NCBI GenBank assembly: GCA_033763315.1
Contig: JANRKS010000020.1
Coordinates: 54,489 to 118,488, forward strand
DNA from: Deltaproteobacteria bacterium
Lineage (GTDB): Bacteria; Myxococcota_A; Polyangia; Fen-1088
DNA: 64,000 nucleotides
Direction: 5' to 3'
The notes beneath the pieces were generated by a model. The model saw only the letters and a program-made list of their open reading frames with translations. It was not told the origin of the DNA and did not search any database. A program made the position numbers and the translations under genes. Shown here in pieces: positions 1,530 to 54,523 of the stretch; position 1 is the first letter of the stretch, and the number at the start of each line of letters is the position of its first letter.

Positions 1530-2867
1530 TCAAAACACTGTGATGGTCGCGGTCCCCGTGACGCCGTCAAAAACGCCACTAATGGTGGCTTTGCCCGCCG
1601 ACACCGCCGTGGCTTGGCCGCGCGACATCACGGCCACCACCGCGGTATCCAGGCTGGAAAACCGCGTTTGGTCGGTGACGATGCGGCTGGTGCCATCGGA
1701 GAAGAACGCCGTGGCTGTGTATTGCAAGCGTGTGCCGCGCGGCACCTCGGTCTCCACGGGCGTCAGTCGCAGTAGCGCAACGGTCAGGTCGCGGCAGGTG
1801 AGCGTGCCAGACGTTGAAAAGCCGTCGAAGGACGCAACAACCATCGTTTCGCCGATGCCTCGGCATGTGGCTTGCCCCCGCTCAACCGTGGCCACAAGTG
1901 GGTTGGTCGCGAGCCAAACCCCCGCATTTGTGACGTTGCGCTGGGTGCCGTCGTTAAACAGCGCGGTGGCCCTAAACGACACCGTTTCACCCACGCGACG
2001 TGCGGCATCTGGCGGTTCGAGAACAAGTGACAAGCGCGCGTCTTGCGTGACGTTGATGACCGCCGCGGCCTCTTGGCCCGACATCTTGGCCAGGATTTTG
2101 GCGGTGCCCACCGCCTGTCCCAACGCCAGTCCAGGAACGTCCAGGTGGTTGACGGCGGCCACCTCGGGAGCGGTGCTGGTCCACGTGACGTCCGCCGTAA
2201 CGTCGCGCTGTTGCCCCGACGCGAAGATCCCTAAGGCGAAGAACTGCACCACACCGGCTGTGTTGATCGTGGTTTCAGTGGGGCGCAGAGACAATGCCGT
2301 GAGTGTGTCGGCCGTGACGCGCACTGTGGCCGTCGCCTTTTGGCCCATGAACTCGGCCACCACCCGCGCCTCCCCCACGAGGACGCCCGTGATGCGGCCA
2401 GGGCGGTTCGGCACGGTGGCCGCGATCATCGACTCAACGAACCACGTCGCCATGTTGGTCACGTCGCGGCTAGGGGCATCCGGAAAAGCCAGCGAAACCC
2501 TCAATTGAACGCTTTGCCCCACTGTGACAGAGGACGAAGCCGGGTCGATAACGAGCTTGCCTGCCACGCTCCCTCCCGCGCCGCCCAACCCACCCCGGCC
2601 ACCCACCACAACGCCGCCCCCTGCGCCGCCGCGGGCGCCGGACCCGCCGGTGCCACCGCGGGCGCCAAACCCGCCGGTGCCAGGCGCGCCGCCACCGGCA
2701 AAGAATCCGCCTTCGCCCCCCTCGTCCAACCCTCCCGGGCCCCCCACGTCGCCCTCTGGGCCTAAAGACGTGCGTCCGCAGGCCGTGGCGATGAACGCCA
2801 ACAAAATCAAGGTGGCGGGTGCGGCCCCCGAACCACTTAACCACCGGCAACGCGTAATCTCGTGCAT
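1530..2867 (-). CDS. Lipoprotein with Gly-rich linker and four Ig-like (Big_2) domains
   Basis: Lipobox ATAC, GGxGG linker, repeated 'RDVT..xW.S..P.VA.V...G' units. Confidence 0.8.
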   Translation of the reverse strand: MHEITRCRWLSGSGAAPATLILLAFIATACGRTSLGPEGDVGGPGGLDEGGEGGFFAGGGAPGTGGFGARGGTGGSGARGGAGGGVVVGGRGGLGGAGGSVAGKLVIDPASSSVTVGQSVQLRVSLAFPDAPSRDVTNMATWFVESMIAATVPNRPGRITGVLVGEARVVAEFMGQKATATVRVTADTLTALSLRPTETTINTAGVVQFFALGIFASGQQRDVTADVTWTSTAPEVAAVNHLDVPGLALGQAVGTAKILAKMSGQEAAAVINVTQDARLSLVLEPPDAARRVGETVSFRATALFNDGTQRNVTNAGVWLATNPLVATVERGQATCRGIGETMVVASFDGFSTSGTLTCRDLTVALLRLTPVETEVPRGTRLQYTATAFFSDGTSRIVTDQTRFSSLDTAVVAVMSRGQATAVSAGKATISGVFDGVTGTATITVF

Positions 2868-2979
2868 AAGAAACTCCCGCGGTGGAACAGCCGCGTGTGG
2901 CTCATGATGTCGCAGGCGCGGCGCAAGAGCAATGAATCCGTCGGCCTTGCTGCCTTGCCCCTGCTACGCTCGGCTAACG

Positions 2980-3654
2980 ATGCCCAGCCCGGCCGAACGC
3001 TTTCGGATGCGCGCCAAAGCCCGCAAAAGCTCGTTGCCCGGCAGCGACGGTCCGTTCGCTTCGTTCCTCGAACGGCACAAAGAGCGCGAGCAGCGGGAGC
3101 GTCGCAAACGCCGCATCTTCTTGGCCTCCTTGGCGGTGCACGTTGTGGTGTTTAGCGTAGTGTTTCTGCTATCGGCGTGGAAGGTCGACGAACTTTTTGG
3201 CCGCCGCGTCGAGGTGAGTGTGGTGCCTGCGAGCCAAGGCGAGGGCCAAGGAGCGGATGGCAAACCAAAGCACACCAATCCCACCAACATCAGCCGCGCC
3301 CTGGGCCTGCGGCTGGTGGTGACGCCGGGGGGCTCGCGCACGGAGCCGCGCGGCGACACGTCGCCCGTCTCTCCCGAAGTGCTGCAACAACTGCAACCTT
3401 TGGTGCTGAACAAGTTGCTGCCTGCGCTCACATATCCAGCGCTTGCCAAAGATCAGCAATTGCGCGGAGCCGTAACCGTGCTTGTCGACGTGGACGACGC
3501 AGGCAAAGCCACCGCGCTTGACGTAAAGCTGCCTTGCTCGAACACCTTGCTGTGCCAAGCCACCAAAGACGCTGTCGCGCAACTTAAGGGATGGCCCAGC
3601 GCCAGCTTGGGTGTTCGCTCGTTTGCTGTGCCCGTCGACTACCGCTTCGAATAG
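2980..3654 (+). CDS. TonB-family energy transducer
   Basis: TM helix ASLAVH; C-terminal YPALAKDQQLRGAVTVLVDVD...VPVDYRF (TonB_C). Start taken as ATG 2980. Confidence 0.7.
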   Translation: MPSPAERFRMRAKARKSSLPGSDGPFASFLERHKEREQRERRKRRIFLASLAVHVVVFSVVFLLSAWKVDELFGRRVEVSVVPASQGEGQGADGKPKHTNPTNISRALGLRLVVTPGGSRTEPRGDTSPVSPEVLQQLQPLVLNKLLPALTYPALAKDQQLRGAVTVLVDVDDAGKATALDVKLPCSNTLLCQATKDAVAQLKGWPSASLGVRSFAVPVDYRFE

Positions 3655-12652: not shown

Positions 12653-12867
12653 TTGTGCCATTGCCTACACAGGCGCACCTGTGAAACGCGTGTTTGCGAC
12701 AGCGACCGGCGGCGAAAGTTACATTTGCGCCGATGGCTTCAGGTTTGCTGTGGGGCAATCGATGGTTGGTGCTGGATTTTATGCGTCAACGCAAAGTATT
12801 ATTTTGCGGCCAGCGAACTAGCCCTGATACTCGCAGCAAAGCAATGAGAGTCCCGGTGGGAGGAATT

Positions 12868-15800
12868 ATGCGAAAAGTAGCCCTAGCAGCAGCGTTTTTG
12901 TCCGCGACAGTTGTCGCAGGATGTGGTGATGACCTTCCGTCGAACATCGACGCCAACGTCGTCGTAGCCGATGGCGGCGGCGGCAACACGGGCGAAGGTG
13001 GGGTCCTCCCGGACGCAGGTTGCCCCAGCGCTACGTTTATCTCGCCGGTACCGGCTGCGAAGCTCACCGCGGCGGATGACGTGGACGATCAGTGCAAAGC
13101 CAATGGCTTTCAGATTGACGTGAAGCTGGCCGTTGGCGCTCCCGATGGCACCCCGGTTACCTTGCTGGCGAACAACACACCGGTGGGGACTCCCGGTGTG
13201 GTTACAGGGGGCACGGTGACTTTTGCGGGTGTTTCGCTGGCGACGAGCGGTGCATCGGCACTGGTCGCGCAGATTGGCAACGCGACGGGCTGTACGGCAA
13301 GCAACACGGTAGACATCAATTGTTCTGCGGTCACCTGTAACATCACGAAGCCGGTAATCAGCGAGGCTCACCCCAAGCTGAACGACGTACCGGTGGCAGA
13401 AGGCGGAGACCGCGTGAGCTCGCCCGGGTCTGACTACCAGGCCGCGTTTGAAGTGACGACGAACGCAGGCGACAACAGTGTTGTGCAGCTGCAGGTTCGC
13501 CGCGCCGATGCGCCTGACGCTGTCGTTAACGTGAACGCCACCGTTTTGGGCGGAAAAGCGAATTTCCCCGGCGTGGCTTTGCGGCCGGATGGTGCTTTTC
13601 AAATTCAAGCAGTGTGTAGGTCCGGAGCCGTTGAGGGACGCTCGCAGTTAGGCACCTTCACAGTGGATACGGCGAAGCCTGATTTGACGGTGACGTCACC
13701 GATCGCGAATCAGTTCTACGGTCCTAGCACGGGACCTGGCGACCTTGATGGCAAGGTTGTCAATGGCAAATTCAAGGTTTGCGCCAGCACCATGGCGGCT
13801 GACGCAACCAATGTGGGGATGGCCATAAACGGCGGCAAGAACTTGGGAGCAGCGATAGGGACATCAGCGATGACCTACGTCCCTGTTGCCGTTGGCGGTT
13901 CTGCTGGCAGCGGATGCGTCGAATTGGATTGCCTCGGCGGTGCGCCGTTCTCAGTCAACGTGTCTCTACGAGACGATGCTGGCAACGTTGCGACTAAGTC
14001 GATTGCGGGCGTCACCTGTGCCTCTGCGCTTCCAGGCGTGCAGATTGTTCAGCCAGTATCAGACTCAGCACCATACACTGATCCTTCCAAGCATCTCCTT
14101 GCTGCGAACGCAACGCAGGCGTTCAAGGACAACGATCCGGCGATTGGCGGCGCGCAAACCCTTGTGGTCGCTTGTACGGACAAGAAGCTTGCGAAGGCTA
14201 AACTCTTCGTCGGGGTGGAAGGCGGCGCGCTTGACCAGGTGGGGTCGGAAGTAGATGTTGTCGATGCCGTGACGGGCGATGGCTGTCCTGCGGGTCTCGG
14301 GTTCGTCGCAAAATGGCCGAAAGCTACTCTGCGCGACAGCACAATGAACACCGCAGGGGGGCTCATCTCGCCGACTCAGCTTCGTGTCGAAGTAACGGAG
14401 GTTTCTTCGGCCAAGGGTCAAAGTCCCATCGTGAGCCTGTGGGTTGATTCTACTGCTCCTACAGCAGATCCCCGAACACCCGCATGCGGAACACTGATCG
14501 AATCCACTGTGGACCAGACACGCGAGCTCACCCTGATAACGTCATCCGCCTTGATCAAGCTGGTGGTGACGTCGAACGGCGCTCCGGCTGAATACGACCC
14601 GACAAGTATCCTTGGTAGCGTCGCGACTTTCTCAAACGTGCTCTTAAAGGTAGGCGAGAACGTACTAACGGCGGTTGTGCGGGATCCAGCCGGCAACCAG
14701 TCAGGCTTGAGCGGGGCTGCCTGCGCCATCAAGGTGGGCACGCCCCCCATCGTGAATTTCGTTTCGCCGGCGACAAATGCAAAACTCTGTGCTGTAGGTG
14801 GTTCAGGCTGCGTCGCAGATGCAGACGGCGCTACGGATGGTTGGCAGGGCACCGTCACTGTTTCGGTTACTGTTGCCGGAACTCCAGCTACGACAGGCAC
14901 CGTGACTCTATCTAAGACAGGAGGAGATGCTATTGGGACTTCCAACGTGGTCAATGGCGTGGCCACCTTTTCAAGCGTCACGATTCCTGAAGGCACCGTG
15001 GCTATTTTAGCTGCCACCAGCGAATACCCATCGGCCGGAGTTGGTACAACAGCCTCCGCATTCACAGTCGATTCAAAAGTTCCCTCGGCGGTCGCCTCTT
15101 TGAGTGCGGAGATACTTACAAGGCGAGAGTCGTCGTTTAAGCTTCGCTGGACGGCCCCTGACGACAATGGCCAACCCGCCGCGGCCTACGATATTCGAGT
15201 CTCCGAGGCCCCCTTGACCGAAGGAAATTTTTCTGCGGCTGAGGCGCTGACGTTTGCCGGTGTTCCGGCCGCTTCGGGCCAAGCAGAAGCCCTGGATGTT
15301 CGAGGCCGGAAAATCGAAGCTGACTACTACTTCGGTGTCGTACCAGTCGACGCGGCCGGCAACCGTGGCCCCCTAGTGAAGCTCGATTTACCCACCCGCG
15401 CCTCCTTCAATAGGACCATCCTCAGCCCGCCGAGCATCGACCCCGACCAAACCAAAGAAGACGAGGCCGGCTATTCTGTCTCAGGGTACGGAGATCTAAA
15501 CGGAGACGGCCGTGGCGACGTCATCGTGGGGACTCGACTAGGCAAGCGGGTGTTGGTCTATTTCGGCACGGCAATGTTCTCTCCCGACGCTCCCTCGCTG
15601 ACTATCACCGGAACCAGCGCCGGCTTTGGGCGGCATGCCATGCTTGTAGGCGATGTTGTTCAAAACCCTGATGAGCCGTCTAGTAGCAGCAAACCGGACC
15701 TAGCTGTGGCGTCTTCGGCCAACAAGATGTTCATTTTCGCGGGTCGGACGACCTGGCCCGCGACATTATCGGAGGCTGACGCTGATTTCGTTATCGACGG

Positions 15801-16734
15801 CGCTGGTAGCTCTGGACTTTTCGGTTACGTCTTGGCTCCTCTCGGGGATTTCGACTCGGATGGCATAGACGATTTGGCAATAGGAAATCCAACCTATGCC
15901 AGCAAAGGCCGGGTAGTGATTCTCCGTGGCTCCAAGTCTATGCCCGACACGGTATCGGTACCGGATGCTGCGAGGACCATACTGATCGACGGTTCGGCTG
16001 CTAACGGCCTCTTTGGCCTCAACTTGCAGGGTCTAGGCAAATTCTATTCTGGCGCAGGGGCGAGCCTCGTCGTTGGCGCTGACAGGGCCAACAGTGACGC
16101 CGGCAAAGTCTACGTTTACAAGGGGCAGGCGGCGTTGTCTGGTTCGATTACTTCCTTCGATGCCAGTATTGACGGATCGCCGGGCAGTCGCTTGGGAGGG
16201 AATTTGGCAACGCTGGGACCAGTTAATGGCAGCACGAATGCCATCGGGCTGGCTTCGCTGTTCGCCGGAACCGGCGTCGTTCAATTGTACTTCGGCAACG
16301 AAACGGCAGGTCCCCTTGGTGGCACCTCAAAATCACTCACGAATGCGTCAGCGGTTGGTACGAACCAGTTCGGAATCGTCACCATCGGTGGGGCCTTCTC
16401 GGGTTCGGTGGCGGCATTTTCGCTGATAGGCAACGATGCTCCTGATATCGTTGTCGCTCCAACCCGCGAAGGCTCGGCTCCAGGCAAGCTCTATGTTTTG
16501 GATGGCTCGCAATTGGGTAGCTTGGCGGCGTCCTCCGACGTAACGACCGCGGGAATAGCGTCCGTGGTATTGCCTTTGCCCAACGGCGAGAATGGAACGC
16601 GACCGTGGTTGGGGAATTCCAGCTTCAGTCGCCTCGTAAGGGATGTGGATGGTGATGGATACGTTGACCTTGCCATAGGCGAAGGCTCGTTGCCGGCATC
16701 CGACCGGCGTGGGCGAGTTCTTGTCTTCTGGTAA
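12868..16734 (+). CDS. Large surface lipoprotein: Ig-like domains, FnIII and FG-GAP (integrin-alpha-like) beta-propeller
   Basis: GGAGGA RBS before ATG 12868; lipobox VAGC; LRWTAPDD..YDIR (FnIII); GDLNGDGRGDVIVG, GDFDSDGIDDLAIG, DVDGDGYVDLAIG. Confidence 0.85.
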   Translation: MRKVALAAAFLSATVVAGCGDDLPSNIDANVVVADGGGGNTGEGGVLPDAGCPSATFISPVPAAKLTAADDVDDQCKANGFQIDVKLAVGAPDGTPVTLLANNTPVGTPGVVTGGTVTFAGVSLATSGASALVAQIGNATGCTASNTVDINCSAVTCNITKPVISEAHPKLNDVPVAEGGDRVSSPGSDYQAAFEVTTNAGDNSVVQLQVRRADAPDAVVNVNATVLGGKANFPGVALRPDGAFQIQAVCRSGAVEGRSQLGTFTVDTAKPDLTVTSPIANQFYGPSTGPGDLDGKVVNGKFKVCASTMAADATNVGMAINGGKNLGAAIGTSAMTYVPVAVGGSAGSGCVELDCLGGAPFSVNVSLRDDAGNVATKSIAGVTCASALPGVQIVQPVSDSAPYTDPSKHLLAANATQAFKDNDPAIGGAQTLVVACTDKKLAKAKLFVGVEGGALDQVGSEVDVVDAVTGDGCPAGLGFVAKWPKATLRDSTMNTAGGLISPTQLRVEVTEVSSAKGQSPIVSLWVDSTAPTADPRTPACGTLIESTVDQTRELTLITSSALIKLVVTSNGAPAEYDPTSILGSVATFSNVLLKVGENVLTAVVRDPAGNQSGLSGAACAIKVGTPPIVNFVSPATNAKLCAVGGSGCVADADGATDGWQGTVTVSVTVAGTPATTGTVTLSKTGGDAIGTSNVVNGVATFSSVTIPEGTVAILAATSEYPSAGVGTTASAFTVDSKVPSAVASLSAEILTRRESSFKLRWTAPDDNGQPAAAYDIRVSEAPLTEGNFSAAEALTFAGVPAASGQAEALDVRGRKIEADYYFGVVPVDAAGNRGPLVKLDLPTRASFNRTILSPPSIDPDQTKEDEAGYSVSGYGDLNGDGRGDVIVGTRLGKRVLVYFGTAMFSPDAPSLTITGTSAGFGRHAMLVGDVVQNPDEPSSSSKPDLAVASSANKMFIFAGRTTWPATLSEADADFVIDGAGSSGLFGYVLAPLGDFDSDGIDDLAIGNPTYASKGRVVILRGSKSMPDTVSVPDAARTILIDGSAANGLFGLNLQGLGKFYSGAGASLVVGADRANSDAGKVYVYKGQAALSGSITSFDASIDGSPGSRLGGNLATLGPVNGSTNAIGLASLFAGTGVVQLYFGNETAGPLGGTSKSLTNASAVGTNQFGIVTIGGAFSGSVAAFSLIGNDAPDIVVAPTREGSAPGKLYVLDGSQLGSLAASSDVTTAGIASVVLPLPNGENGTRPWLGNSSFSRLVRDVDGDGYVDLAIGEGSLPASDRRGRVLVFW

Positions 16735-18511
16735 ACCAACGTTCTCCCACTTTTGTGCGGTCTTTACGGATGAGGACGGCGCAATGTGGGCCAGTCTCCC
16801 GGCGACGGCGATACGCGTTCGTTGGGAAGACTGGCCGGCAAATACCGCCACACATGCCCTTTATTCGGACGGTGATAGAATTTGCCTCGCAACTGGACGT
16901 GTAGATAACCTCAGCGACTTAGGGAAAACAGCAGGCATCAATGTCCCCTTTGGGACAAATCTTCCCTTCTGTATAGCGGCGCTGTACCGAAAATTGGGCA
17001 GCAGGCTGTTTGACAAGATCGAAGGCGACTTATCGGTTGTAATTGGAGATCGTCCAAGCCGAAGTGTGCTTGCGTATCGAGACGCATTCGGCGTAGGACA
17101 ACTATTTTCTTGGGAATCAGGGCGAACCCAGATTCTGTCTTCGTCCTGCGACCTTTTGCTTTCGCTATTGCCGCGGAGGCCAGCGATCGATGAAGTGACG
17201 GTGTGCGAATACCTTTCGGGACGCCCTCGCTTCCTAGATCGCACTTACTTCAAGACGATACGTTCGATCAGGCCCGGTCATGTCGACGTGACATCCGGGG
17301 GCCGTCGGCAGACCAGTTGCTCAACCCGCTTGACGCCCAAAGGCGACGCCGAGGAGAGCGACGTGATTTTCGCTCTACGGAAGTCCGTGTGGCATCGCCT
17401 TTTCGACACGCGGAGCGCAGTTGTTCATTTGAGCGGGGGTCTTGACTCATCAGCGATATCCGCTCTGGCGGATGCTTTGAAGAATGATGGTGAACTCCCT
17501 TCGACTGATCTCCACCTCCTTTCTTCTCTTTTCCCTGGGACGGCCTCGGATGAGAGCCGGGGGATACGGAGGACCTTGACGCAGCTCCGCTTGCCCTGGA
17601 AATCACGTGACGCGACATCCTTCCCATTCTTCTGCCCTTCAACGATTGCTCTCGATCGCCCATCGTTTCGCCCGTGGTTACTAAACCCCGATCCTACCGA
17701 GTTCGCCCTAGCCCGCGAAGTCCACGCAGAAGCGAGCTTAACTGGCTTCGGTGGTGACGAACTCTTCTATTCAGTCGGGGCGATAGCCGAGGCCTTGAAG
17801 GCTGGCCACCTAGCAACGTTCGCCAAACAGTTGTTTAGGTTTACTCGGTGGCACCATAGAGGTGCCGTTCTGGCGACTATCAGGGACGCATTACAGGCTG
17901 AGAAGCTTGGTAAATGGCCGTGCGCACCCGTAACACCTCCACCCGAGTGGTTGGCCCCAAATGCAAGACCTTACTGGGAAGAAATGAACCGGTCACCCGT
18001 CGACTATGCGATCGAACCATCCGAAGCGACCGAGAACGTGACACTCAGTAGGATTTTCGGGCCATCTATGCTGCGATCAGCGCATTCGAGGACTTGGATT
18101 GGAGCTGAAAATGGCGTTGCGATGAGATTTCCGTACCTTGAGAAGGACGTTGTCGAGACGGTCCTGGGATTGTCCCGACGCCCACCGAATGGCGATGCGC
18201 GCCATCTTCAAAGGAACATGCTCAAAACCCTCCTTCCTTTTGTCGGGGTCCAGAGGCGGAAGAAGACATCCGTAGGCCCGGTGATGTGGTCTAACCTTCG
18301 AAAAATACGAACCGAAATCGCCGACTATTGGCGTTCCGATTGGCTGGTGGGGAGTTATGTCGAGCGCAGCTTCGTGGGGGCTGCGGACAAGGCACTGTCG
18401 AAAGTATTAGATCCTGGCCCACATACGCCTGTCTGGAGTCTGCCAATCCTTAGGGTGCTTACGCTAGAAGCTTGGCTGCGAAGGATTTCTGGCTATAATA
18501 GACTGTCTTAA
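16709..18511 (+). CDS. Asparagine-synthetase-like lasso peptide cyclase (C protein)
   Basis: AYRDAFG, HLSGGLDSS (ATP pyrophosphatase loop), LTGFGGDELF, RFPYLE; adjacent to precursor, B2 and RRE genes; start uncertain. Confidence 0.85.
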   Translation: MGEFLSSGKPTFSHFCAVFTDEDGAMWASLPATAIRVRWEDWPANTATHALYSDGDRICLATGRVDNLSDLGKTAGINVPFGTNLPFCIAALYRKLGSRLFDKIEGDLSVVIGDRPSRSVLAYRDAFGVGQLFSWESGRTQILSSSCDLLLSLLPRRPAIDEVTVCEYLSGRPRFLDRTYFKTIRSIRPGHVDVTSGGRRQTSCSTRLTPKGDAEESDVIFALRKSVWHRLFDTRSAVVHLSGGLDSSAISALADALKNDGELPSTDLHLLSSLFPGTASDESRGIRRTLTQLRLPWKSRDATSFPFFCPSTIALDRPSFRPWLLNPDPTEFALAREVHAEASLTGFGGDELFYSVGAIAEALKAGHLATFAKQLFRFTRWHHRGAVLATIRDALQAEKLGKWPCAPVTPPPEWLAPNARPYWEEMNRSPVDYAIEPSEATENVTLSRIFGPSMLRSAHSRTWIGAENGVAMRFPYLEKDVVETVLGLSRRPPNGDARHLQRNMLKTLLPFVGVQRRKKTSVGPVMWSNLRKIRTEIADYWRSDWLVGSYVERSFVGAADKALSKVLDPGPHTPVWSLPILRVLTLEAWLRRISGYNRLS

Positions 18512-18529
18512 CTGATAGCGGAACCGCAT

Positions 18530-18697
18530 ATGACCAAGCAAAGCTCGAAGGCCAAGTCCGTCACTGAACTGAAAGAGAAATCCTACAGGGCTCCCGAGGT
18601 GAGGGCTGTGGGAAACCTAAAGGACTTAGTGTCAGGTGGACTGGGAACTGTCCAGGACGGAGGAGAGCTTCCAGGTGAGGATCGACAGGCTCAATAG
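18530..18697 (+). CDS. Lasso peptide precursor (55 aa; not in ORF track)
   Basis: MTKQSSKAKSVTELKEKSYRAPEVRAVGNLKDLVS|GGLGTVQDGGELPGEDRQAQ*; YxxPxVxxxG leader; Gly1 and Asp8 in the core. Confidence 0.88.
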   Translation: MTKQSSKAKSVTELKEKSYRAPEVRAVGNLKDLVSGGLGTVQDGGELPGEDRQAQ

Positions 18698-18709
18698 CAA
18701 AGGTGACTG

Positions 18710-19066
18710 TTGCTCAGAGCGGGCATCCTAGTGTGTCTGGTGGCGCCCTTGGTTGAAGCCTTGCGAAGGTCTTCTGATGCCGCCACTGCGCTTGGGATTT
18801 GTAGAGCCGTAGGACGTTATCAACCGACGAAGGAAGGAAGATTCAAGGACAGCCTCGCCCGATGTGTGTCGGGAGTGGATCTTCGGATGCCTGGAGGACC
18901 AAACTGTTTTCGGAGAGTACTTCTGCTCTCCGCATGTGATAGGTCTGCTGCGCTGACGTCGGTTAAATTCGGAATTGTGGCGGGTGGCGGGGCTAAGTCC
19001 GGTCACGCCTGGCTGGCATCTGAAAGTGTGGATGTAAGCCTCTACGACGCGGTCTTCGACCTATAG
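18710..19066 (+). CDS. Lasso leader peptidase (B2, Transglut_core3-like)
   Basis: PNCFRRVL (Cys), GHAWL (His), VKFGI; 118 aa; AAGGTG RBS before TTG. Confidence 0.82.
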   Translation: MLRAGILVCLVAPLVEALRRSSDAATALGICRAVGRYQPTKEGRFKDSLARCVSGVDLRMPGGPNCFRRVLLLSACDRSAALTSVKFGIVAGGGAKSGHAWLASESVDVSLYDAVFDL

Positions 19067-20082
19067 TTTCTGATCGCGGCTTGAAGACTGTCAAGGTTGC
19101 TTGGACTGTCGAGTGCCGCTGAACGGCAATTAGCAGCGAGGTGGCACGCGGACCTAAATGCCCCTATCAACGTGGGTGGTTGCGAAGTTCCGATAAAGAG
19201 ATTCTGAAACAACTCAGTAGCAGCTTCAAGGGGCGCAAGCTGTCGAAATCCGAACTCCTCTCTGTCGCTACGTCTCTGGGCGCTAATGTGCCATATCCAC
19301 GAAAGCGGCTCCCACGAGTCGGTCGAAAGCACTGGGAATTCTAAGTACGAGTGGTGATCAGCTGCGAGGTGGGTTGCTGCGGCCCGAGCCCATTCCCGAA
19401 CTTGGCTTTCAAATGTAGAGGCCACAAGCGGCTGCGACTCCTTGTTAGCGGATCGGAGACCCTGTACTACGCAGAGATCCTCTGATACCAGCCTAGCTCC
19501 TTGGCTCTGAAAGGCACGTGCGAGTGTCGTCTTGCCGGCCCCACTGTGACCGACGGCCATAACGGTTTCTCCTTCCACTTGAAATGCGGAAGCGTGCACT
19601 ACGAAGTGTCCCCGCGCGGAGAGCAACTTGGGTGCCACCGCTAGAAGCGCTCGATAGGCGAAGGACATTTGTCCCTCCAAAGGACCAGCGAGCCATCGAA
19701 TGACGAAGTCTTCTTTTTCGATGTTTACGATTGCCGATTTTTCGAGCGTGAGTTCCCAGCAGTCCGCCTTTTCAACAAAGGAGAAGTCGCCGGTCCATCT
19801 CGCTCGTTCGAGGGGTACAAAGTCCAACAGGTGTGACAACAATGTCGAACTAATTCCGACCGCCTCCGGCAACGATACCTTCATCAACTCAGCTACCTGG
19901 GAGAAGGCAGCTTCCATGCTGGGAGAGCTTAGGAGCACCTTTATGACCAGCTGCGCCTCGTCATTGAGGCTGAAGAGCTCACCAGTCTCGGCATCAAGGA
20001 GTAGGGAATCGAGAGCCACAGATTGCAGAAAGAAGCGGCTCTTAAGGTCCTTGATTTCCATGTGAGGTTTCGATGTAGTCAT
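19042..20082 (-). CDS. RRE(PqqD-like)-fused HPr-kinase-related kinase
   Basis: N-terminal LLLDAETGELFSLNDEAQLVI (RRE-like); C-terminal VHASA...GHSGAGKTTL...LVSEDL. Confidence 0.8.
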   Translation of the reverse strand: MTTSKPHMEIKDLKSRFFLQSVALDSLLLDAETGELFSLNDEAQLVIKVLLSSPSMEAAFSQVAELMKVSLPEAVGISSTLLSHLLDFVPLERARWTGDFSFVEKADCWELTLEKSAIVNIEKEDFVIRWLAGPLEGQMSFAYRALLAVAPKLLSARGHFVVHASAFQVEGETVMAVGHSGAGKTTLARAFQSQGARLVSEDLCVVQGLRSANKESQPLVASTFESQVREWARAAATHLAADHHSYLEFPVLSTDSWEPLSWIWHISAQRRSDREEFGFRQLAPLEAATELFQNLFIGTSQPPTLIGAFRSACHLAANCRSAALDSPSNLDSLQAAIRNYRSKTAS

Positions 20083-20363
20083 TCGGGTTGGCCCGGTTGG
20101 ATATCCAGCAAACCCCAGGCTTGTAGTTTGCCAACCACCGACGACACATCGGAAGTTGCTGCCTCACCTCCGCCGCACTCATTCTTAACCTCTTTGATCA
20201 AGTCTTCGAGAGATGTCGGCTTGGAGAGCATCCTCCATACGAAGTAAGCAGTCTCGTTGAGTTCCCAGCAGTCCCCCGAGCGCGCGTCAACGAGTACTGC
20301 TCCGGCGCTGGTTGGGCGGCTCAGGACGTTAGGATTGGTCTGATATCGCATCCGCACATTCAT
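20079..20363 (-). CDS. Stand-alone RiPP recognition element (PqqD / lasso B1)
   Basis: AVLVDARSGDCWELNETAYFVWRML...DV...xLQAWGLL; ATGA overlap with the kinase; ORF extends to 20375. Confidence 0.9.
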   Translation of the reverse strand: MNVRMRYQTNPNVLSRPTSAGAVLVDARSGDCWELNETAYFVWRMLSKPTSLEDLIKEVKNECGGGEAATSDVSSVVGKLQAWGLLDIQPGQPE

Positions 20364-21183
20364 GGCTGTCAGCAAGGTCTTTAGCTCTTGACCCCTCCCA
20401 TAGCGTGGCTATCCCTGCAAGTTAACACTGCCGAAGCATCAGTTAGCGCCTGAGCGTTGGCACGATGAAGGCATTGACGTTGATCTCTCTCCTAGGATAC
20501 CAGGAACCAGGGTGTTGTTGTAAGGCGAGGTGCATCCATCACCCCTTCACGCGATGGCCTCGCAGTCGGGCAATCAACCCGTCGGACGATTGATCCGGTG
20601 GTACTGCCTGCCGTTTTTAACGCTGGCTCGTGTTTGTACGGCTTGGCTCGCTGCCAATCAAACCAACTGCGAGGAGAGAGGACCTCACGCTGCAACAGTG
20701 CCCCAATCACTAGCAATGCCTCTTTACCTTGTCCTCCAGCACGACCCAAAAGATCGAAACAATACACTGGACGTTCGGCCGCGCGCAGGCTCGACGCTCC
20801 TCCATGACCGGTTCGGGCGAAGGCGCATCGCATCCTACCTAGAGCTGGTGGCGCGGTTCCTTACAAGAGAGGTGGGGGGCCCGGAGACGATGAAGAGACG
20901 TCCGCCTTGTTCGATGCGGCTCAGCTTGCCAACCCATGACGAAGCGCCCTACATCCGCGTCCGGGGGTTCACCGCTGCTTTGCCTGCCGTAATCGTCACC
21001 CCCTCGCGGACGACTTGCACCCGAACGATGCCGGGGATGTGGTGTTGAGCCAGACTGATGGCCAGCCGTATCGAGCCTCCCCAACTGACGAAGATGAGGC
21101 GATCCGTCGTGCGGATGGCGCCCCCATTTCAAAGCTTCTTTGCACGAGCGCTCCGTGCGGCCGCTGCGCAAGAAAGACCCGCA

Positions 21184-21748
21184 TCAGCCCCCCAAGACAT
21201 CGCGCACAGAAGCCGCCGTCAGGGCCGCCGCATGCCACTTCCGCAACAACGCAACGTCGCGGCTGCGTTCAATGCGTTCGCGCTCTTCTTCCAGCGGTTC
21301 CAATCCCCGTAGGCGCAGCACGGCGAGAACCGCTTGCGCTAGGCGATAGGCCTCTCCCTCCGCCTTGCCCTCCGCCTTGCCTTCCGCCTTGCCTTCGCTG
21401 TGGGCCCGTCGAAGGCTTTGGTCTTGGAATTGGTAGTTTTGTGGAATCATGTTCAAAGCCTTTTTGACTTGATCGCTCAGTGCAGCCCGGATGAGATCGT
21501 AATAATACATCGCCGTTCGACCGTCGGGCAGGCTCAGCGCCGCCTCGATGGCCGTGCGAGCTATCTTGACTGCGCGGGTCGTGTTTTTGTCGTGCCCGTG
21601 GCAGATCGCCGAAAGAACCGCTAACGCTGTGTTCTGTTCAGCTTGCGCCAAGTCCCCTACGGCAGGCATTTGGTCCGGCCCCAGGACAACACGAGGAAGG
21701 CTGCTCTCGAAGCATTTCTACGATCGCTTGGTGTCGTTGCGACGGCAC
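21184..21748 (-). pseudogene. Internally deleted Rpn-like / PD-(D/E)XK-associated protein
   Basis: N-terminal MPSQRHQAIVEMLREQP (GTG 21748) is out of frame with VLGPDQMP...LAVLSA..HG...(EGKA)n...LRKWHAAALTA. Confidence 0.65.
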
Positions 21749-21862
21749 ACCCGGTCTTCGGCACACGCTCGCAACTGTTGCTTACAAAACGCAACCGCCC
21801 TCAACACACTTAAGCGGTGGTATTCTTGGCGTTTCGAAACGAACGTCTTTAAGCGATATCAG

Positions 21863-22783
21863 ATGCCTCAAAGCAACGACGATCTCTTCTCCCGCAATCT
21901 CACGCACACCCAGCAGCTCTTGCGGGAGGCCGAGGAGGTGCTGCAACGGCTTGCTAGGAACCGCGCGGCCATGGCGCGGCCGCGCGTGATGGTTCCAGCT
22001 TTGGTCGAGCCGCCACCGCCCCACGTGCCCGAACCCCCACCGCCTTTGGAGCTCTTGGCCAAGCGGCGACGAGCGCCGAACGAAATAACGCATGAGGAAC
22101 GAAGTGGTTTTACGCGCCTTTTCGCCAAGCGCGGATTTATCGTCAATGCCGACCTGCGCGCTATTTCCGGGTTGGACGTGGCGCAGGCAAGCGTGCGTCT
22201 GCGTGTTTTCCGTAACGCAGAATTATTGCGACAAGATGGCCTTGGTTCCCTGACAAAATATTACCCCGGTCCACGGTGGCAGCCCCTAGAGCTGGAACCG
22301 CATGCCGCGCCCCCGCCCAATCCCGCTGAGATAAACGTCACCATTGGCACGCCACGCGATGTACAAGCGCTTGCAAATCTGCGCGCGCAACAGGTGCAAC
22401 CAATGACCGTTGTTACATCAAGCGAGGCGTCAGGCAAAATCGAGAATTTATTGCGGCAGTTGCGCTCGCGCCGCAATGTTCTGCTTCTTGCATCCGATGT
22501 GGAGGGCAATCTCGTCGGTTATTTGCACTGCGGCTTGGACGAAAAACGGGGCGATCGCATCGGCTCTATCTATGCGTTCTATCTTGCCCCTGGTGCGCAC
22601 CAGAACGCTCGGCTTCGTTTATTTGAAACCGCGAAGCGGTGGTTGACCCAACAAGGCGCCTTAAGGATTCGTGTGCAGGTGCCGCATGAGGCCTCGCCCG
22701 CGCAAGCCTTCTTTGCAGAGCAACAATTTAACCCCGCCAGCGTTGAAATGGAGCTGTTTGTGGGAGCCACGGTCAAGACGTAA
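21863..22783 (+). CDS. Winged-helix + GNAT acetyltransferase fusion
   Basis: GFIVNADLRAISGL...LLRQDG.G..TKY (wHTH-like); C-terminal LVGY...IYAFYL.P...AQAFF (GNAT). Confidence 0.65.
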   Translation: MPQSNDDLFSRNLTHTQQLLREAEEVLQRLARNRAAMARPRVMVPALVEPPPPHVPEPPPPLELLAKRRRAPNEITHEERSGFTRLFAKRGFIVNADLRAISGLDVAQASVRLRVFRNAELLRQDGLGSLTKYYPGPRWQPLELEPHAAPPPNPAEINVTIGTPRDVQALANLRAQQVQPMTVVTSSEASGKIENLLRQLRSRRNVLLLASDVEGNLVGYLHCGLDEKRGDRIGSIYAFYLAPGAHQNARLRLFETAKRWLTQQGALRIRVQVPHEASPAQAFFAEQQFNPASVEMELFVGATVKT

Positions 22784-22940
22784 CGGCCGGGCGCCTATGT
22801 GCACGAGTCGTGTTGCTGTCGCGCCCGTGACAGATTGCAGAAAGGACAGCCAAGCCTGAGACATTTCGGCGTTGAGATGGACCTTGTGGTCGCGCTTAAG
22901 GTCAAAAAGAAGCGCCCGCAGCCGCCTTGACGTTGCTGGT

Positions 22941-23510
22941 TTAACCTCGAAACACGGCATCAAGCGCGACGCTGACTTCAGCGAATGCAGGCCAGGTCAG
23001 TGATGAGGTGCTGCCCACCACTGCACTCTGTTGATAGCGGCCATCGACTGAATTCAATCGCCATTGCGTAACCGTACGCAGATCTGGATCCGCTACCCAG
23101 TATTCGGGAATGCCGAAACGTTCATAAAGGTGCAGCTTCAGCTGCAGATCGCGCTCTCCTGAACTTGGTGACAAAATCTCCACCACGAGATCCGGAACAC
23201 CTTCGATGCCTCGGTTTGTGATGATGCCTTCGCGCGCCTTCGAAACAACCACGAGGTCTGGCTGCACCACGGTCTCGTCATCCAGCATAAGGTCGATGGG
23301 CGCGTCGAATACCTGTGCAAGCCCTGTCTCCTCAAGTTGCTTCATAAGCGCAAACTGAAGACGGCGAGACACCGTCTGGTGGCGCGGAGCGGGGGCGGGG
23401 GTCACGTAGAAGTCTCCTTCGATAAGCTCGTGACGCTTGCCATCCTCGGGAAGCAGGCAGTACTCCCGGTATGTGAAGGGGCGGGGGCGTGGAGCCGACT
23501 GAGAACGCAC
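22941..23510 (-). CDS. Uma2 (DUF820) family endonuclease
   Basis: LPEDGKRHELIEG, VQPDLVV, PDLVVEILSPS, GIPEYWVADP. Confidence 0.93.
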   Translation of the reverse strand: MRSQSAPRPRPFTYREYCLLPEDGKRHELIEGDFYVTPAPAPRHQTVSRRLQFALMKQLEETGLAQVFDAPIDLMLDDETVVQPDLVVVSKAREGIITNRGIEGVPDLVVEILSPSSGERDLQLKLHLYERFGIPEYWVADPDLRTVTQWRLNSVDGRYQQSAVVGSTSSLTWPAFAEVSVALDAVFRG

Positions 23511-23577
23511 GTCCCAAGTCTAGCATAGGCAGGAGCGGGTCCCGCTCGACCCGTCGCCCCCCGCCATGTGCTTGCGC

Positions 23578-53224: not shown

Positions 53225-54523
53225 ATGAAGAAGCAATTTCTAGGATCTTTGATGGCGCTCGCGTTCGTGGGCGGTTTGGCGGCTTGCTCGTCTGACAGCA
53301 AGAGCAACGACGATAGCGCGGGTGGTGGGGGCGGTGGAGGAGGTAGCGGTGGTTCTTCTGCTGGTGGCGGCGGTGGTAAAGCTGCCGGTGGCAGCGGAGG
53401 AAGTGCCGGCGGTGCTGCAGGTGCCGCAGGCGGAGCGGGCGGTGCTGCAGGCGCCGCAGGTGGAGCGGGCGGTGCTGCAGGCGGCGCGGCTGGAAATGCA
53501 GGCGGCGCTGCGGGGCAGGCTGTGGCTGTGAATGTCGCATCCGACTTCAAGTGCCCTGCTGGAATGACCTACGGGGATCCTCTCCCAGCGGAAGCTATGC
53601 GAAAGCTGACGCTTGTGAAGGATGGCCTCAAGGGTGGTGAAGGCGGCATTTGGGTTGAGTCGCAAAAAGCATTGTTCTTCTCGGATCTGCAGCGCTCAGC
53701 TGAACCAGCTGCCGATGGACAAAAGGACGCGTTCTGGCGGATGGCCTCAAGCTCGAAGATCTGGAAGCACACGCCCGAAAACAACATGACGGTTGAGTGG
53801 CTTGCTGACGCCGGAGTCAACGGCATGGCACTGTCGGCGGATCTTACAAAGCTCATTATCGCGCACATCGCCGACCGATCGATCACCTCCATCAACCTCG
53901 TTGATAAGGTGAAGACGAAGGTTGTTGACAAGATGATGACTCAAACCTTCAACGTAACGAATGACCTGACTGTCCGCTCCGATGGCCACATCTATTTCAC
54001 CGATCCGCTGTGGCAGGCTCACATCGTAGGCAAGAACCCAGGCGCGCCTGCGGCTGGCAGCACGAAGGTTTATCACATGGCTCCAGGCGGAGAAGTCACC
54101 GTCGTGGACGCAGACCGCGTGCATCCCAACGGAACCGCGTTGTCGCCAGACGGACGTACCCTTTACGTCGGAGCGATTTCTGGCGTTGATCAGCTGGACA
54201 GTGGTGGTTGGGCGTTGGCCGGGAAATTGTGGAAATACGAAGTGAAGGCAGATGGGTCCACGGGGCCCGCGGTCGAGTTCGCTTCCGGTTTGAAAGCACC
54301 TGACGGCATCGTGGTGGATTGTGCTGGCAATGTCTACGTGGCCAATTCTCCAGGCATCGTGGTGTTCAAGAACGATGGCACCAAGATTGGCGCCATCGAA
54401 GGACTCACGCCTACGGCTGGGCTTACGAACGTGGCATTCGGCGGCTCGGACCGTAAAACTCTGTTTGCCACCACGAACACTGAACTGCTGAAAATCGCGG
54501 TGAACGTTCCCGGTCCCAACTGA
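53225..54523 (+). CDS. SMP-30/gluconolactonase family lipoprotein
   Basis: Lipobox LAAC; EG.IW, NDL..RSDG.IYFTDP, PNG.ALSPDG, PDGI.VDCAGN.YV, TNVAFGG. Confidence 0.92.
   Translation: MKKQFLGSLMALAFVGGLAACSSDSKSNDDSAGGGGGGGGSGGSSAGGGGGKAAGGSGGSAGGAAGAAGGAGGAAGAAGGAGGAAGGAAGNAGGAAGQAVAVNVASDFKCPAGMTYGDPLPAEAMRKLTLVKDGLKGGEGGIWVESQKALFFSDLQRSAEPAADGQKDAFWRMASSSKIWKHTPENNMTVEWLADAGVNGMALSADLTKLIIAHIADRSITSINLVDKVKTKVVDKMMTQTFNVTNDLTVRSDGHIYFTDPLWQAHIVGKNPGAPAAGSTKVYHMAPGGEVTVVDADRVHPNGTALSPDGRTLYVGAISGVDQLDSGGWALAGKLWKYEVKADGSTGPAVEFASGLKAPDGIVVDCAGNVYVANSPGIVVFKNDGTKIGAIEGLTPTAGLTNVAFGGSDRKTLFATTNTELLKIAVNVPGPN
53408..53482 (+). repeat. 30-bp tandem repeat (GGAAGAAGGA x2.5) in the Gly/Ala linker
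   Basis: GGCGGTGCTGCAGG recurs at 53408, 53438 and 53468. Confidence 0.75.

Follow-up and report, generated by a model that had tools for sequence, protein, structure and literature searches.

A divergent split-B lasso-peptide cluster in a Polyangia genome, with a kinase carrying its own recognition element and a predicted 20-residue core

The closest known system to the locus described here is bsf, a cluster reported from Bradymonas sediminis FA350 and with relatives in Bradymonadales (PMC10368454; Duan et al. 2023), as judged from the motif numbering and the description in the main text of that paper. It encodes a lasso-peptide pathway with a leader-processing protein split into B1 and B2, a cyclase and an HprK-like kinase. 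The locus considered here lies in the genome of a Deltaproteobacteria bacterium (assembly GCA_033763315.1; lineage Myxococcota_A, Polyangia, Fen-1088; 7.6 Mb in 40 contigs, 90.85% complete), on contig JANRKS010000020.1. The stretch analysed, referred to as the window, covers 64,000 nucleotides (positions 54,489 to 118,488 of the forward strand), and all window coordinates are counted from its first letter. Its translation contains, within 16709-20375, five uninterrupted open reading frames (ORFs): a cyclase (C), a 55-aa precursor (A), a B2 peptidase, a kinase with an N-terminal recognition element for peptides that are made by the ribosome and modified post-translationally (a RiPP recognition element, RRE) and a stand-alone PqqD/B1 protein. 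With a probability of roughly 70%, judged on sequence and comparison, this locus is an intact cluster for a tailored, probably phosphorylated lasso peptide and a divergent member of the kinase-bearing split-B lasso clusters. The same list of parts, including the second RRE fused to a kinase, had been proposed in the initial annotation, and family scans, synteny and catalytic residues all agree with it.

The likeness to bsf is not limited to the split B1/B2 pair, the cyclase and the kinase. Both have a leader of the YxxPxL type at -17 to -12, an aliphatic residue other than Thr at -2 and a Gly1-Asp8 ring, and in both a gene with FG-GAP repeats lies at the border of the cluster; the nucleotidyltransferase (N) gene, absent from the window cluster, is also missing in some relatives of bsf (PMC10368454). 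The bsf kinase modifies the still linear precursor at a ring residue, and the acceptor proposed for the window lies in the ring as well. The acceptor is Ser3 in bsf, whereas the window core has Leu3 and a conserved hydroxyl residue at +5. Residue -2 is Ile in bsf, but Val in the window and Leu in most of its relatives. An ABC (ATP-binding cassette) exporter and a nucleotidyltransferase belong to bsf, and the window cluster has neither. For BsfK, the main text of the paper describes no RRE, while the window kinase has one at its N-terminus (PMC10368454). The locus had initially been put forward as a candidate for an undescribed system: this holds for the compound, but kinase-bearing split-B lasso clusters as such are known, including those of Bradymonadales (PMC10368454).

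Kinases of the paeninodin type (PadeK, ThcoK and SyanK; PMC8498205) are likewise HprK homologues, associated with a split-B lasso system and acting on a linear, leader-bearing precursor. As described there, they phosphorylate a C-terminal Ser, and their clusters have another gene order and contain an exporter, which the window cluster lacks. Phosphorylation of this type is rejected for the window, whose predicted core ends in Gln; a C-terminal Ser is found in only one of the 17 related cores. The pairing of a kinase with a PqqD protein is also that of the HPr-rel-A system (TIGR04352, HprK-related kinase A, and TIGR04353, PqqD-family chaperone), to which the window proteins give weak hits (8.2e-6 and 8.8e-5), far under the equivalog cut-offs; in the window, one PqqD domain is fused to the kinase and another one is free. 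In the LPP family of Bacillota (LppK/LppB/LppS; PMC13381572), an HprK-like kinase and an RRE, here a discrete protein, also serve a leader-bearing RiPP precursor. The acceptor of LppA is Ser3, near the core's N-terminus, and little processed peptide is obtained without the kinase (PMC13381572). This family is however not a lasso family: its protease is signal-peptidase-like, neither a cyclase nor a B2 is present, and it belongs to a different phylum. The lasso B1 proteins TfuB1 (6jx3) and TbiB1 (5v1u) share the beta3-alpha3 fold modelled for the window kinase N-terminus. In the window, this domain is covalently linked to a tailoring kinase and does not serve the peptidase. Metanodin (PMC12670498), also considered for comparison, is unrelated.

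The cyclase, precursor and B2 genes are read on the plus strand, and the genes for the RRE-kinase and B1 converge on them from the minus strand (Table 1). This C-A-B2 / K-B1 order, with a homologous precursor, recurs in 16 further loci, recovered as tblastn segments from related genomes, at 24-47% protein identity. In most of them, the kinase and B1 genes are again on the strand opposite to C-A-B2; one locus ends at a contig edge, where only a C-terminal piece of the kinase is visible. Full-length cyclase homologues (24-33% identity) are present in many genomes of the same family among the 60 related genomes searched. From these sequences, the recurrence of the gene order together with a homologous precursor in 16 loci means that the arrangement is not due to chance. 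A search of the genome contigs for such loci retrieved no relative when the window cyclase was the sole query, and only a generic P-loop pattern plus two loci when the kinase alignment was used. One of the compared loci belongs to a metagenome-assembled genome named 'Polyangia bacterium', and is 77-78% identical in nucleotides to flanks of same-family genomes; the host initially suggested, a probable myxobacterium, is consistent with this indirect evidence. The 3' ends of the B2 and RRE-kinase genes overlap by 25 bases in the window (19042-19066), and comparable overlaps occur in locus L013 (8 bases) and in locus L024 (25 bases).

Table 1. Coordinates of the lasso cluster, of its domains and of neighbouring features in the window.
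Feature	Position	Strand	Description
FG-GAP / Ig-like surface lipoprotein gene (large)	12694-16734	+	longest ORF 1346 aa; PF01839 FG-GAP E 6.6e-15
Lasso cyclase C, Asn-synthetase-like macrolactam synthetase	16709-18511	+	600 aa; SGGLDSS, GFGGDE; PF00733 E 7.8e-21
Promoter-like site TTGGCT-16-TATAAT	18472-18499	+	10/12 hexamer matches; within cyclase 3' end, 31 bases before precursor ATG
Precursor gene	18530-18697	+	55 aa
Leader peptide	18530-18634	+	35 aa; Tyr(-17), Pro(-14), Val(-12), Gly(-8), Asn(-7), Val(-2), Ser(-1)
Predicted core GGLGTVQDGGELPGEDRQAQ + stop	18635-18697	+	20 aa; predicted Gly1-Asp8 macrolactam
B2 leader peptidase, transglutaminase-like Cys protease	18710-19066	+	118 aa; PF13471 E 0.0096, NF033537 E 0.0063
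RRE-kinase gene	19042-20082	-	346 aa; RRE joined to HprK-like P-loop kinase
HprK/PEPCK-fold P-loop kinase domain + stop	19042-19785	-	residues ~100-346
N-terminal RRE of kinase	19825-20034	-	residues ~17-86; PqqD-like winged helix, beta3-alpha3
Stand-alone B1 (PqqD-family RRE)	20079-20375	-	98 aa; PF05402 E 7.6e-14, above cut-off; NF033530 lasso PqqD chaperone E 2.1e-13

The precursor alignment comprises 17 sequences, from the window and the 16 related loci, each of which has a short ORF between cyclase and B2. The boundary of the core was set by the fixed register of the YxxPx(L/V) motif at -17 to -12, as used for BsfA (PMC10368454). Lasso precursors are short, with a YxxPxL leader, a first core residue that is Gly, Ala, Ser or Cys, and Asp or Glu at one of positions 7-9. 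With this leader motif, Gly1 and Asp8, the window precursor has the pattern of a lasso peptide. In the leader, Tyr(-17), Pro(-14) and Gly(-8) are invariant (17/17), and Asn(-7) and Ala(-1) nearly so, the window having Ser(-1); residue -2 is Leu in 13 precursors and Val in four, including the window. Gly1 is found in 14 of the 17 cores, the others starting with Thr, Ser or Met, and the acidic residue is Asp8 in 13, Asp9 in three and Asp7 in one. Position 3, Leu in the window, is not conserved. At +5, a Ser or Thr is present in 13 cores (Thr5 in the window), and three of the remaining ones have Ser4. This canonical leader and core pattern, along with the conserved synteny and catalytic residues, lends support to the pathway for a modified lasso peptide that the initial annotation had deduced. 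Exactly two Cys occur in seven of the 17 cores (loci L013, L015, L018, L020, L023, L033 and L035): one lies in the ring or adjacent to it, the other close to the C-terminus. These sequences suggest that the cluster family includes lasso variants braced by a disulfide; the window core has no Cys.

The kinase gene encodes a 346-aa protein in which a lasso PqqD model gives a weak match at residues 27-71 and HprK-type models give weak matches at 157-209, around the Walker A loop. A profile built from 11 kinase N-termini matches the lasso B1 proteins TfuB1 (6jx3_B, E 1.9e-13) and TbiB1 (5v1u_A, 4e-11). The AlphaFold (AF2) model of the protein, of high confidence (mean predicted local distance difference test, pLDDT, 93.6), consists of a beta3-alpha3 N-terminal domain followed by a domain of the PEPCK/HprK fold, and its Foldseek matches are PEPCK and HprK/P. 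In an alignment of 40 homologues, K152, H163, G178, S180, A182, G183, K184, T185 and D202 are invariant. The residues H163, G178, G181, G183, K184, T185, E201 and D202 are colinear, at a constant offset of +15, with the motif given for BsfK (H148-G163-G166-G168-K169-S170-D186-D187; Duan et al., PMC10368454), with Thr in place of Ser and Glu201 in place of the first Asp.

An exhaustive HMMER search with the RRE-kinase yielded 1910 cluster representatives at E<=1e-3, 204 at <=1e-10 and three at <=1e-30, the nearest being 39% identical. Most of the top 150 matches are full-length (330-345 aa), and the fusion thus represents a populous but unnamed family. PqqD was detected in eight of the nine kinase homologues scanned, two of which, both metagenomic, have two PqqD domains before the kinase. 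A triple fusion of a B1-type PqqD, a second PqqD/RRE and the kinase is encoded in one related locus (L015:4770-6041(+), 423 aa) and likewise in P0054 and P0088, which ties B1 and the RRE-kinase together functionally. Not every kinase of such clusters has a recognisable RRE, as the hhalign comparison of the RRE profile with the N-terminus of a 318-aa kinase from a cluster of another family (L031) was negative (probability 0.2). In a phylum-wide sample of 301 genomes, of uncertain sensitivity since seven first-look candidates were scored per genome, the RRE-kinase profile matched five at E<=1e-20, and outside the window's own genome just the kinase part was matched. No description of an RRE-kinase fusion in lasso clusters was found in the main-text passages covered by the literature search.

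A complex predicted for the RRE-kinase and the precursor passed with a score of 0.84, the best of three controls reaching 0.01. The mark applied to such complexes is reached by 116 of 157 solved complexes vs. 2 of 215 mismatched pairs, counts that are approximate, custom alignments having been used. The runs share at least 63% of the contacts, and the pLDDT of the partner is at least 55. In the interface, the peptide segment Tyr(-17)-Gly4 faces residues 27-43 and 77-93 of the RRE as well as K152, H163 and residues 289-309. Similar RRE-leader complexes have already been solved, and the RRE part of this result may reflect likeness or memory; the prediction supports docking of the leader by the RRE-kinase, without proving it.

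The following scheme is deduced as regards the action of the kinase on the peptide, its acceptor, the sequence of steps, the site of cleavage and the lasso fold. The N-terminal RRE of the kinase would bind the 55-aa precursor through its YxxPx(L/V) leader, and this docking would bring the start of the core to the active site of the HprK-like domain for ATP-dependent phosphorylation of a ring residue, for which Thr5 is the best candidate. The stand-alone B1 would then hand the leader over to the Cys-His-Asp peptidase B2, with cleavage after Val(-2)-Ser(-1). Finally, the cyclase would adenylate Asp8 and link it to the new amine of Gly1 around the threaded tail, to give a 20-residue lasso with an eight-membered ring. 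Residue 5 of the ring is proposed as the phospho-acceptor because the Ser/Thr at this position is the sole conserved hydroxyl residue and because of the direction of the modelled peptide.

It is also conceivable, albeit with a low probability, that the lasso peptide is made and that the kinase leaves no phosphate on residue 5. It could modify another site, add several phosphates or set a transient processing mark, the conserved Ser/Thr5 serving the geometry of the ring. The known HprK-like kinases of lasso and other RiPP systems do vary in this respect: a C-terminal Ser, with polyphosphorylation, is used in the paeninodin type (PMC8498205), and Ser3 in BsfA (PMC10368454) and in LppA (PMC13381572). 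In the window core, which has neither a C-terminal Ser nor Ser3, conservation is the guide to the acceptor, and Thr5 lies outside the confident contacts of the predicted complex; both points count against phosphorylation at residue 5 and are to be added to those gathered below. On the other side, no position other than +5 offers a conserved hydroxyl. Moreover, the modelled peptide runs from the RRE towards K152 and H163, with Gly1-Gly4 at the kinase domain, and the window cluster contains no gene for a lyase or other follow-up enzyme. A tailored, probably phosphorylated lasso peptide, with Thr5 of the ring as the best candidate acceptor, is preferred. An additional gene of 397 aa, without Pfam match, is located between kinase and B2 in two related loci (L021:478-1671(-) and L025:6734-7927(-)) and not in the window; it is possibly an additional tailoring enzyme.

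The peptidase and the cyclase are best recognised through their orthologues. Among 11 B2 orthologues, Cys66, His99 and Asp113 are invariant, and the lasso B2 model NF033537 matches seven of them (best E 2.2e-9); the B2 profile had no match among the PDB sequences. The SGGLDS PP-loop is invariant in 11 cyclase orthologues, and the window cyclase clears the PF00733 cut-off. Its start is uncertain, the candidates being a GTG at 16709, in overlap with the FG-GAP gene, and an ATG at 16784. Taken as a set, the 11 cyclase orthologues have the lasso cyclase model NF033535 as best match (1.5e-85, vs. 2e-56 for AsnB). A search of the PDB sequences with the window cyclase alone gave no match. As the window proteins taken alone are borderline, the assignment to lasso biosynthesis rests on the relatives.

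Several observations weigh against an intact pathway for a phosphorylated lasso peptide. The window B2 scores weakly, under the cut-off, in both of its models. The kinase domain also stays under the curated cut-offs (Hpr_kinase_C E 1.5e-4; HprK_rel_A/B ~8e-6), and so does the cyclase in the NCBIfam models, which score about equally (NF033535 E 3.2e-22, NF033561 7.8e-25 and TIGR01536, AsnB, 3.8e-23). The nearest public cyclase is just 27% identical to that of the window; together with the sub-threshold scores, this leaves room, from sequence, for a loss of function. Thr at -2 of the leader has long been considered essential in lasso precursors. This classical penultimate residue is missing in the window and in all 17 precursors, while it is present in two other same-family cyclase loci (L019 and L032) and in three kinase-containing clusters of the phylum-wide sample (L037-L039). 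Thr(-2) is however no longer strictly defining, since Ile(-2) was validated in BsfA, where it works for both phosphorylation and leader cleavage (PMC10368454). In the same report, BsfK required BsfB1 for efficient phosphorylation, and the mature bsf lasso was never detected in five heterologous hosts. Finally, Pfam and NCBIfam scans revealed no ABC exporter gene in the window cluster. No nucleotidyltransferase gene (PF14907) was found in it either, and elsewhere in the genome there is merely a sub-threshold PF14907 fragment; in several relatives (L017, L022, L024 and L035), such a gene adjoins the kinase. Hence, of the completeness claimed in the initial annotation, the minimal A, B1, B2 and C set stands, and the exporter and nucleotidyltransferase are absent.

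Part of these data would also fit a silent or decaying relic from which no lasso is made, the long branches of its enzymes resulting from relaxed selection. The failure of the related bsf cluster to give a mature product in heterologous hosts would agree with it, and the window proteins are the most divergent of their families, cyclase and kinase being only 24-28% identical to those at the same site in congeners. This is nevertheless improbable: the five ORFs are uninterrupted, the kinase model is confident, and the window retains every residue that is invariant among the orthologues, namely the PP-loop, the Cys-His-Asp triad, the P-loop with its His, Lys and Asp, and the Tyr, Pro and Gly of the leader.

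AsnB uses an N-terminal Cys as nucleophile. That the 600-aa protein is instead a paralogue of the glutamine-hydrolysing asparagine synthetase, with unrelated small neighbours, for which the similar TIGR01536 score of the window protein alone and the seven PDB hits of the family profile (AsnB-like, including AsnB and a hydroxyamidotransferase, with no lasso cyclase among them) could be invoked, can be rejected as very improbable: its second residue is not Cys at either candidate start, a separate true AsnB is present in the same genome (332.5 bits vs. 76.3 bits for the window gene, PF00733), the orthologue set prefers the lasso model, and the gene is always flanked by a Gly1/Asp8 precursor, B2 and RRE proteins.

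Immediately upstream of the cyclase gene, in the same orientation and with an overlap into its longest ORF, lies a gene for a large FG-GAP lipoprotein, probably the first of the operon. The true start of this gene is likely near 12868, just ahead of a lipobox (..VVAGC); a lipobox is present in the window protein and in three of seven orthologues. The model of the C-terminal 646 aa (pLDDT 85.1) best matches the propellers of integrin alpha headpieces (8tcg_A, E 1.7e-11). Near-full-length orthologues of this part, 36-41% identical, occur in 16 of the 60 relatives searched; in 13 of the 16, fewer than 400 bases separate the end of the orthologue from a following cyclase-like match on the same strand, and in the other three the match reaches a contig end. 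Counted by locus, the gene is directly upstream of the cyclase in 14 of the 17 clusters of the LLA/G type. Of the remaining three, one is cut by a contig end, one (L020) lacks the gene, and one (L033) shows just a weak FG-like match, located on the other side. The linkage extends to two other families of the same class. In L031, the order is FG-B1-B2-C-K; in L039, the FG-GAP gene is followed by the nucleotidyltransferase gene with a 4-base overlap, and B2, kinase and cyclase lie on its other side, which puts FG-GAP inside the cluster. A chance adjacency is rejected, as the window's own genome contains a single full-length copy besides two short repeat matches in one other protein. Judging from these sequences, the lipoprotein is probably tied functionally to the lasso cluster. 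In the literature searched, an FG-GAP link to lasso peptides appears solely in Duan et al. (PMC10368454), where the gene bordering bsf was presumed not to be involved. Besides the large gene upstream of its cyclase, locus L016 carries a second, shorter FG-GAP/fn3 gene (1541-3601(+)) on the far side of the cluster.

A genome of the same genus (G001) has a cluster at the same site, adjoining etfA. While EtfA of the window genome and of G001 are 81% identical, the identity decreases to 36% for FG-GAP, 31% for B2, 25% for the kinase and 24% for the cyclase. Between G001 and a further genome, G002, it is 64% for FG-GAP, 46% for B2, 34% for the kinase and 35% for the cyclase. The FG-GAP protein and the cyclase of the window are at least as distant from those of congeners as from those of other genera. 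Such values suggest that the module either diversifies very fast or is swapped as a cassette.

A speculative reading, doubtful at present, is that lasso peptide and lipoprotein form a co-inherited, fast-diversifying pair of ligand and surface receptor, which could act as a self/non-self recognition or signalling module of predatory-type bacteria and not as an exported antibiotic. It is suggested by the linkage of FG-GAP in three families in different arrangements, and in Bradymonas (PMC10368454), and by its position between the lasso genes and the nucleotidyltransferase gene in one genome (L039). Further reasons are the divergence of the module between congeners, far above that of the flanking housekeeping gene, the resemblance of the propeller to the peptide-binding head of integrins, and a cluster without exporter gene.

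Some features of the surroundings were also recorded. From the sigma-70-like promoter match inside the end of the cyclase gene, the precursor might be transcribed separately; the promoter and terminator scan of the region found two such promoter sites vs. 3.0 expected from shuffled sequences, i.e., no excess. Downstream of B1, ~3.2 kb (20376-23577) separate it from etfA. In congener G001 (L028), the distance from the B1 match to etfA is ~0.6 kb, with one small ORF between them. The 3.2-kb segment of the window contains a gene for a Uma2-family endonuclease (22941-23510, E 2.4e-35), an ORF of 411 aa whose C-terminus is faintly GNAT-like (E 0.022) and further ORFs that match no family, and looks like an insertion beside the lasso cluster. 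In two related lasso clusters, genes for methyltransferases of the protein arginine methyltransferase (PRMT) type adjoin the cluster (L022:9475-10842(-) and L032:3983-5128(-)).

Compared with the literature searched, five elements are new: a family-wide fusion of RRE and kinase, a leader junction of the Leu/Val(-2)-Ala/Ser(-1) type, a Ser/Thr5 that is conserved, an integrin-like lipoprotein as conserved partner, and a module that is hyper-divergent. Few kinase-tailored lasso peptides are known, and the window locus and its 16 relatives add a defined, alignable subfamily to them. With a free B1 next to a kinase that has an RRE of its own, the locus is a clean system in which to ask how one leader serves two recognition elements. 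The predicted Leu/Val(-2)-Ala/Ser(-1) junction would widen the specificity known for B2 peptidases, and the predicted acidic core of 20 residues represents a new scaffold for natural-product discovery. For the bacteria themselves, the linkage to the FG-GAP lipoprotein and the extreme divergence between congeners suggest a role of the lasso peptide beyond antibiosis.

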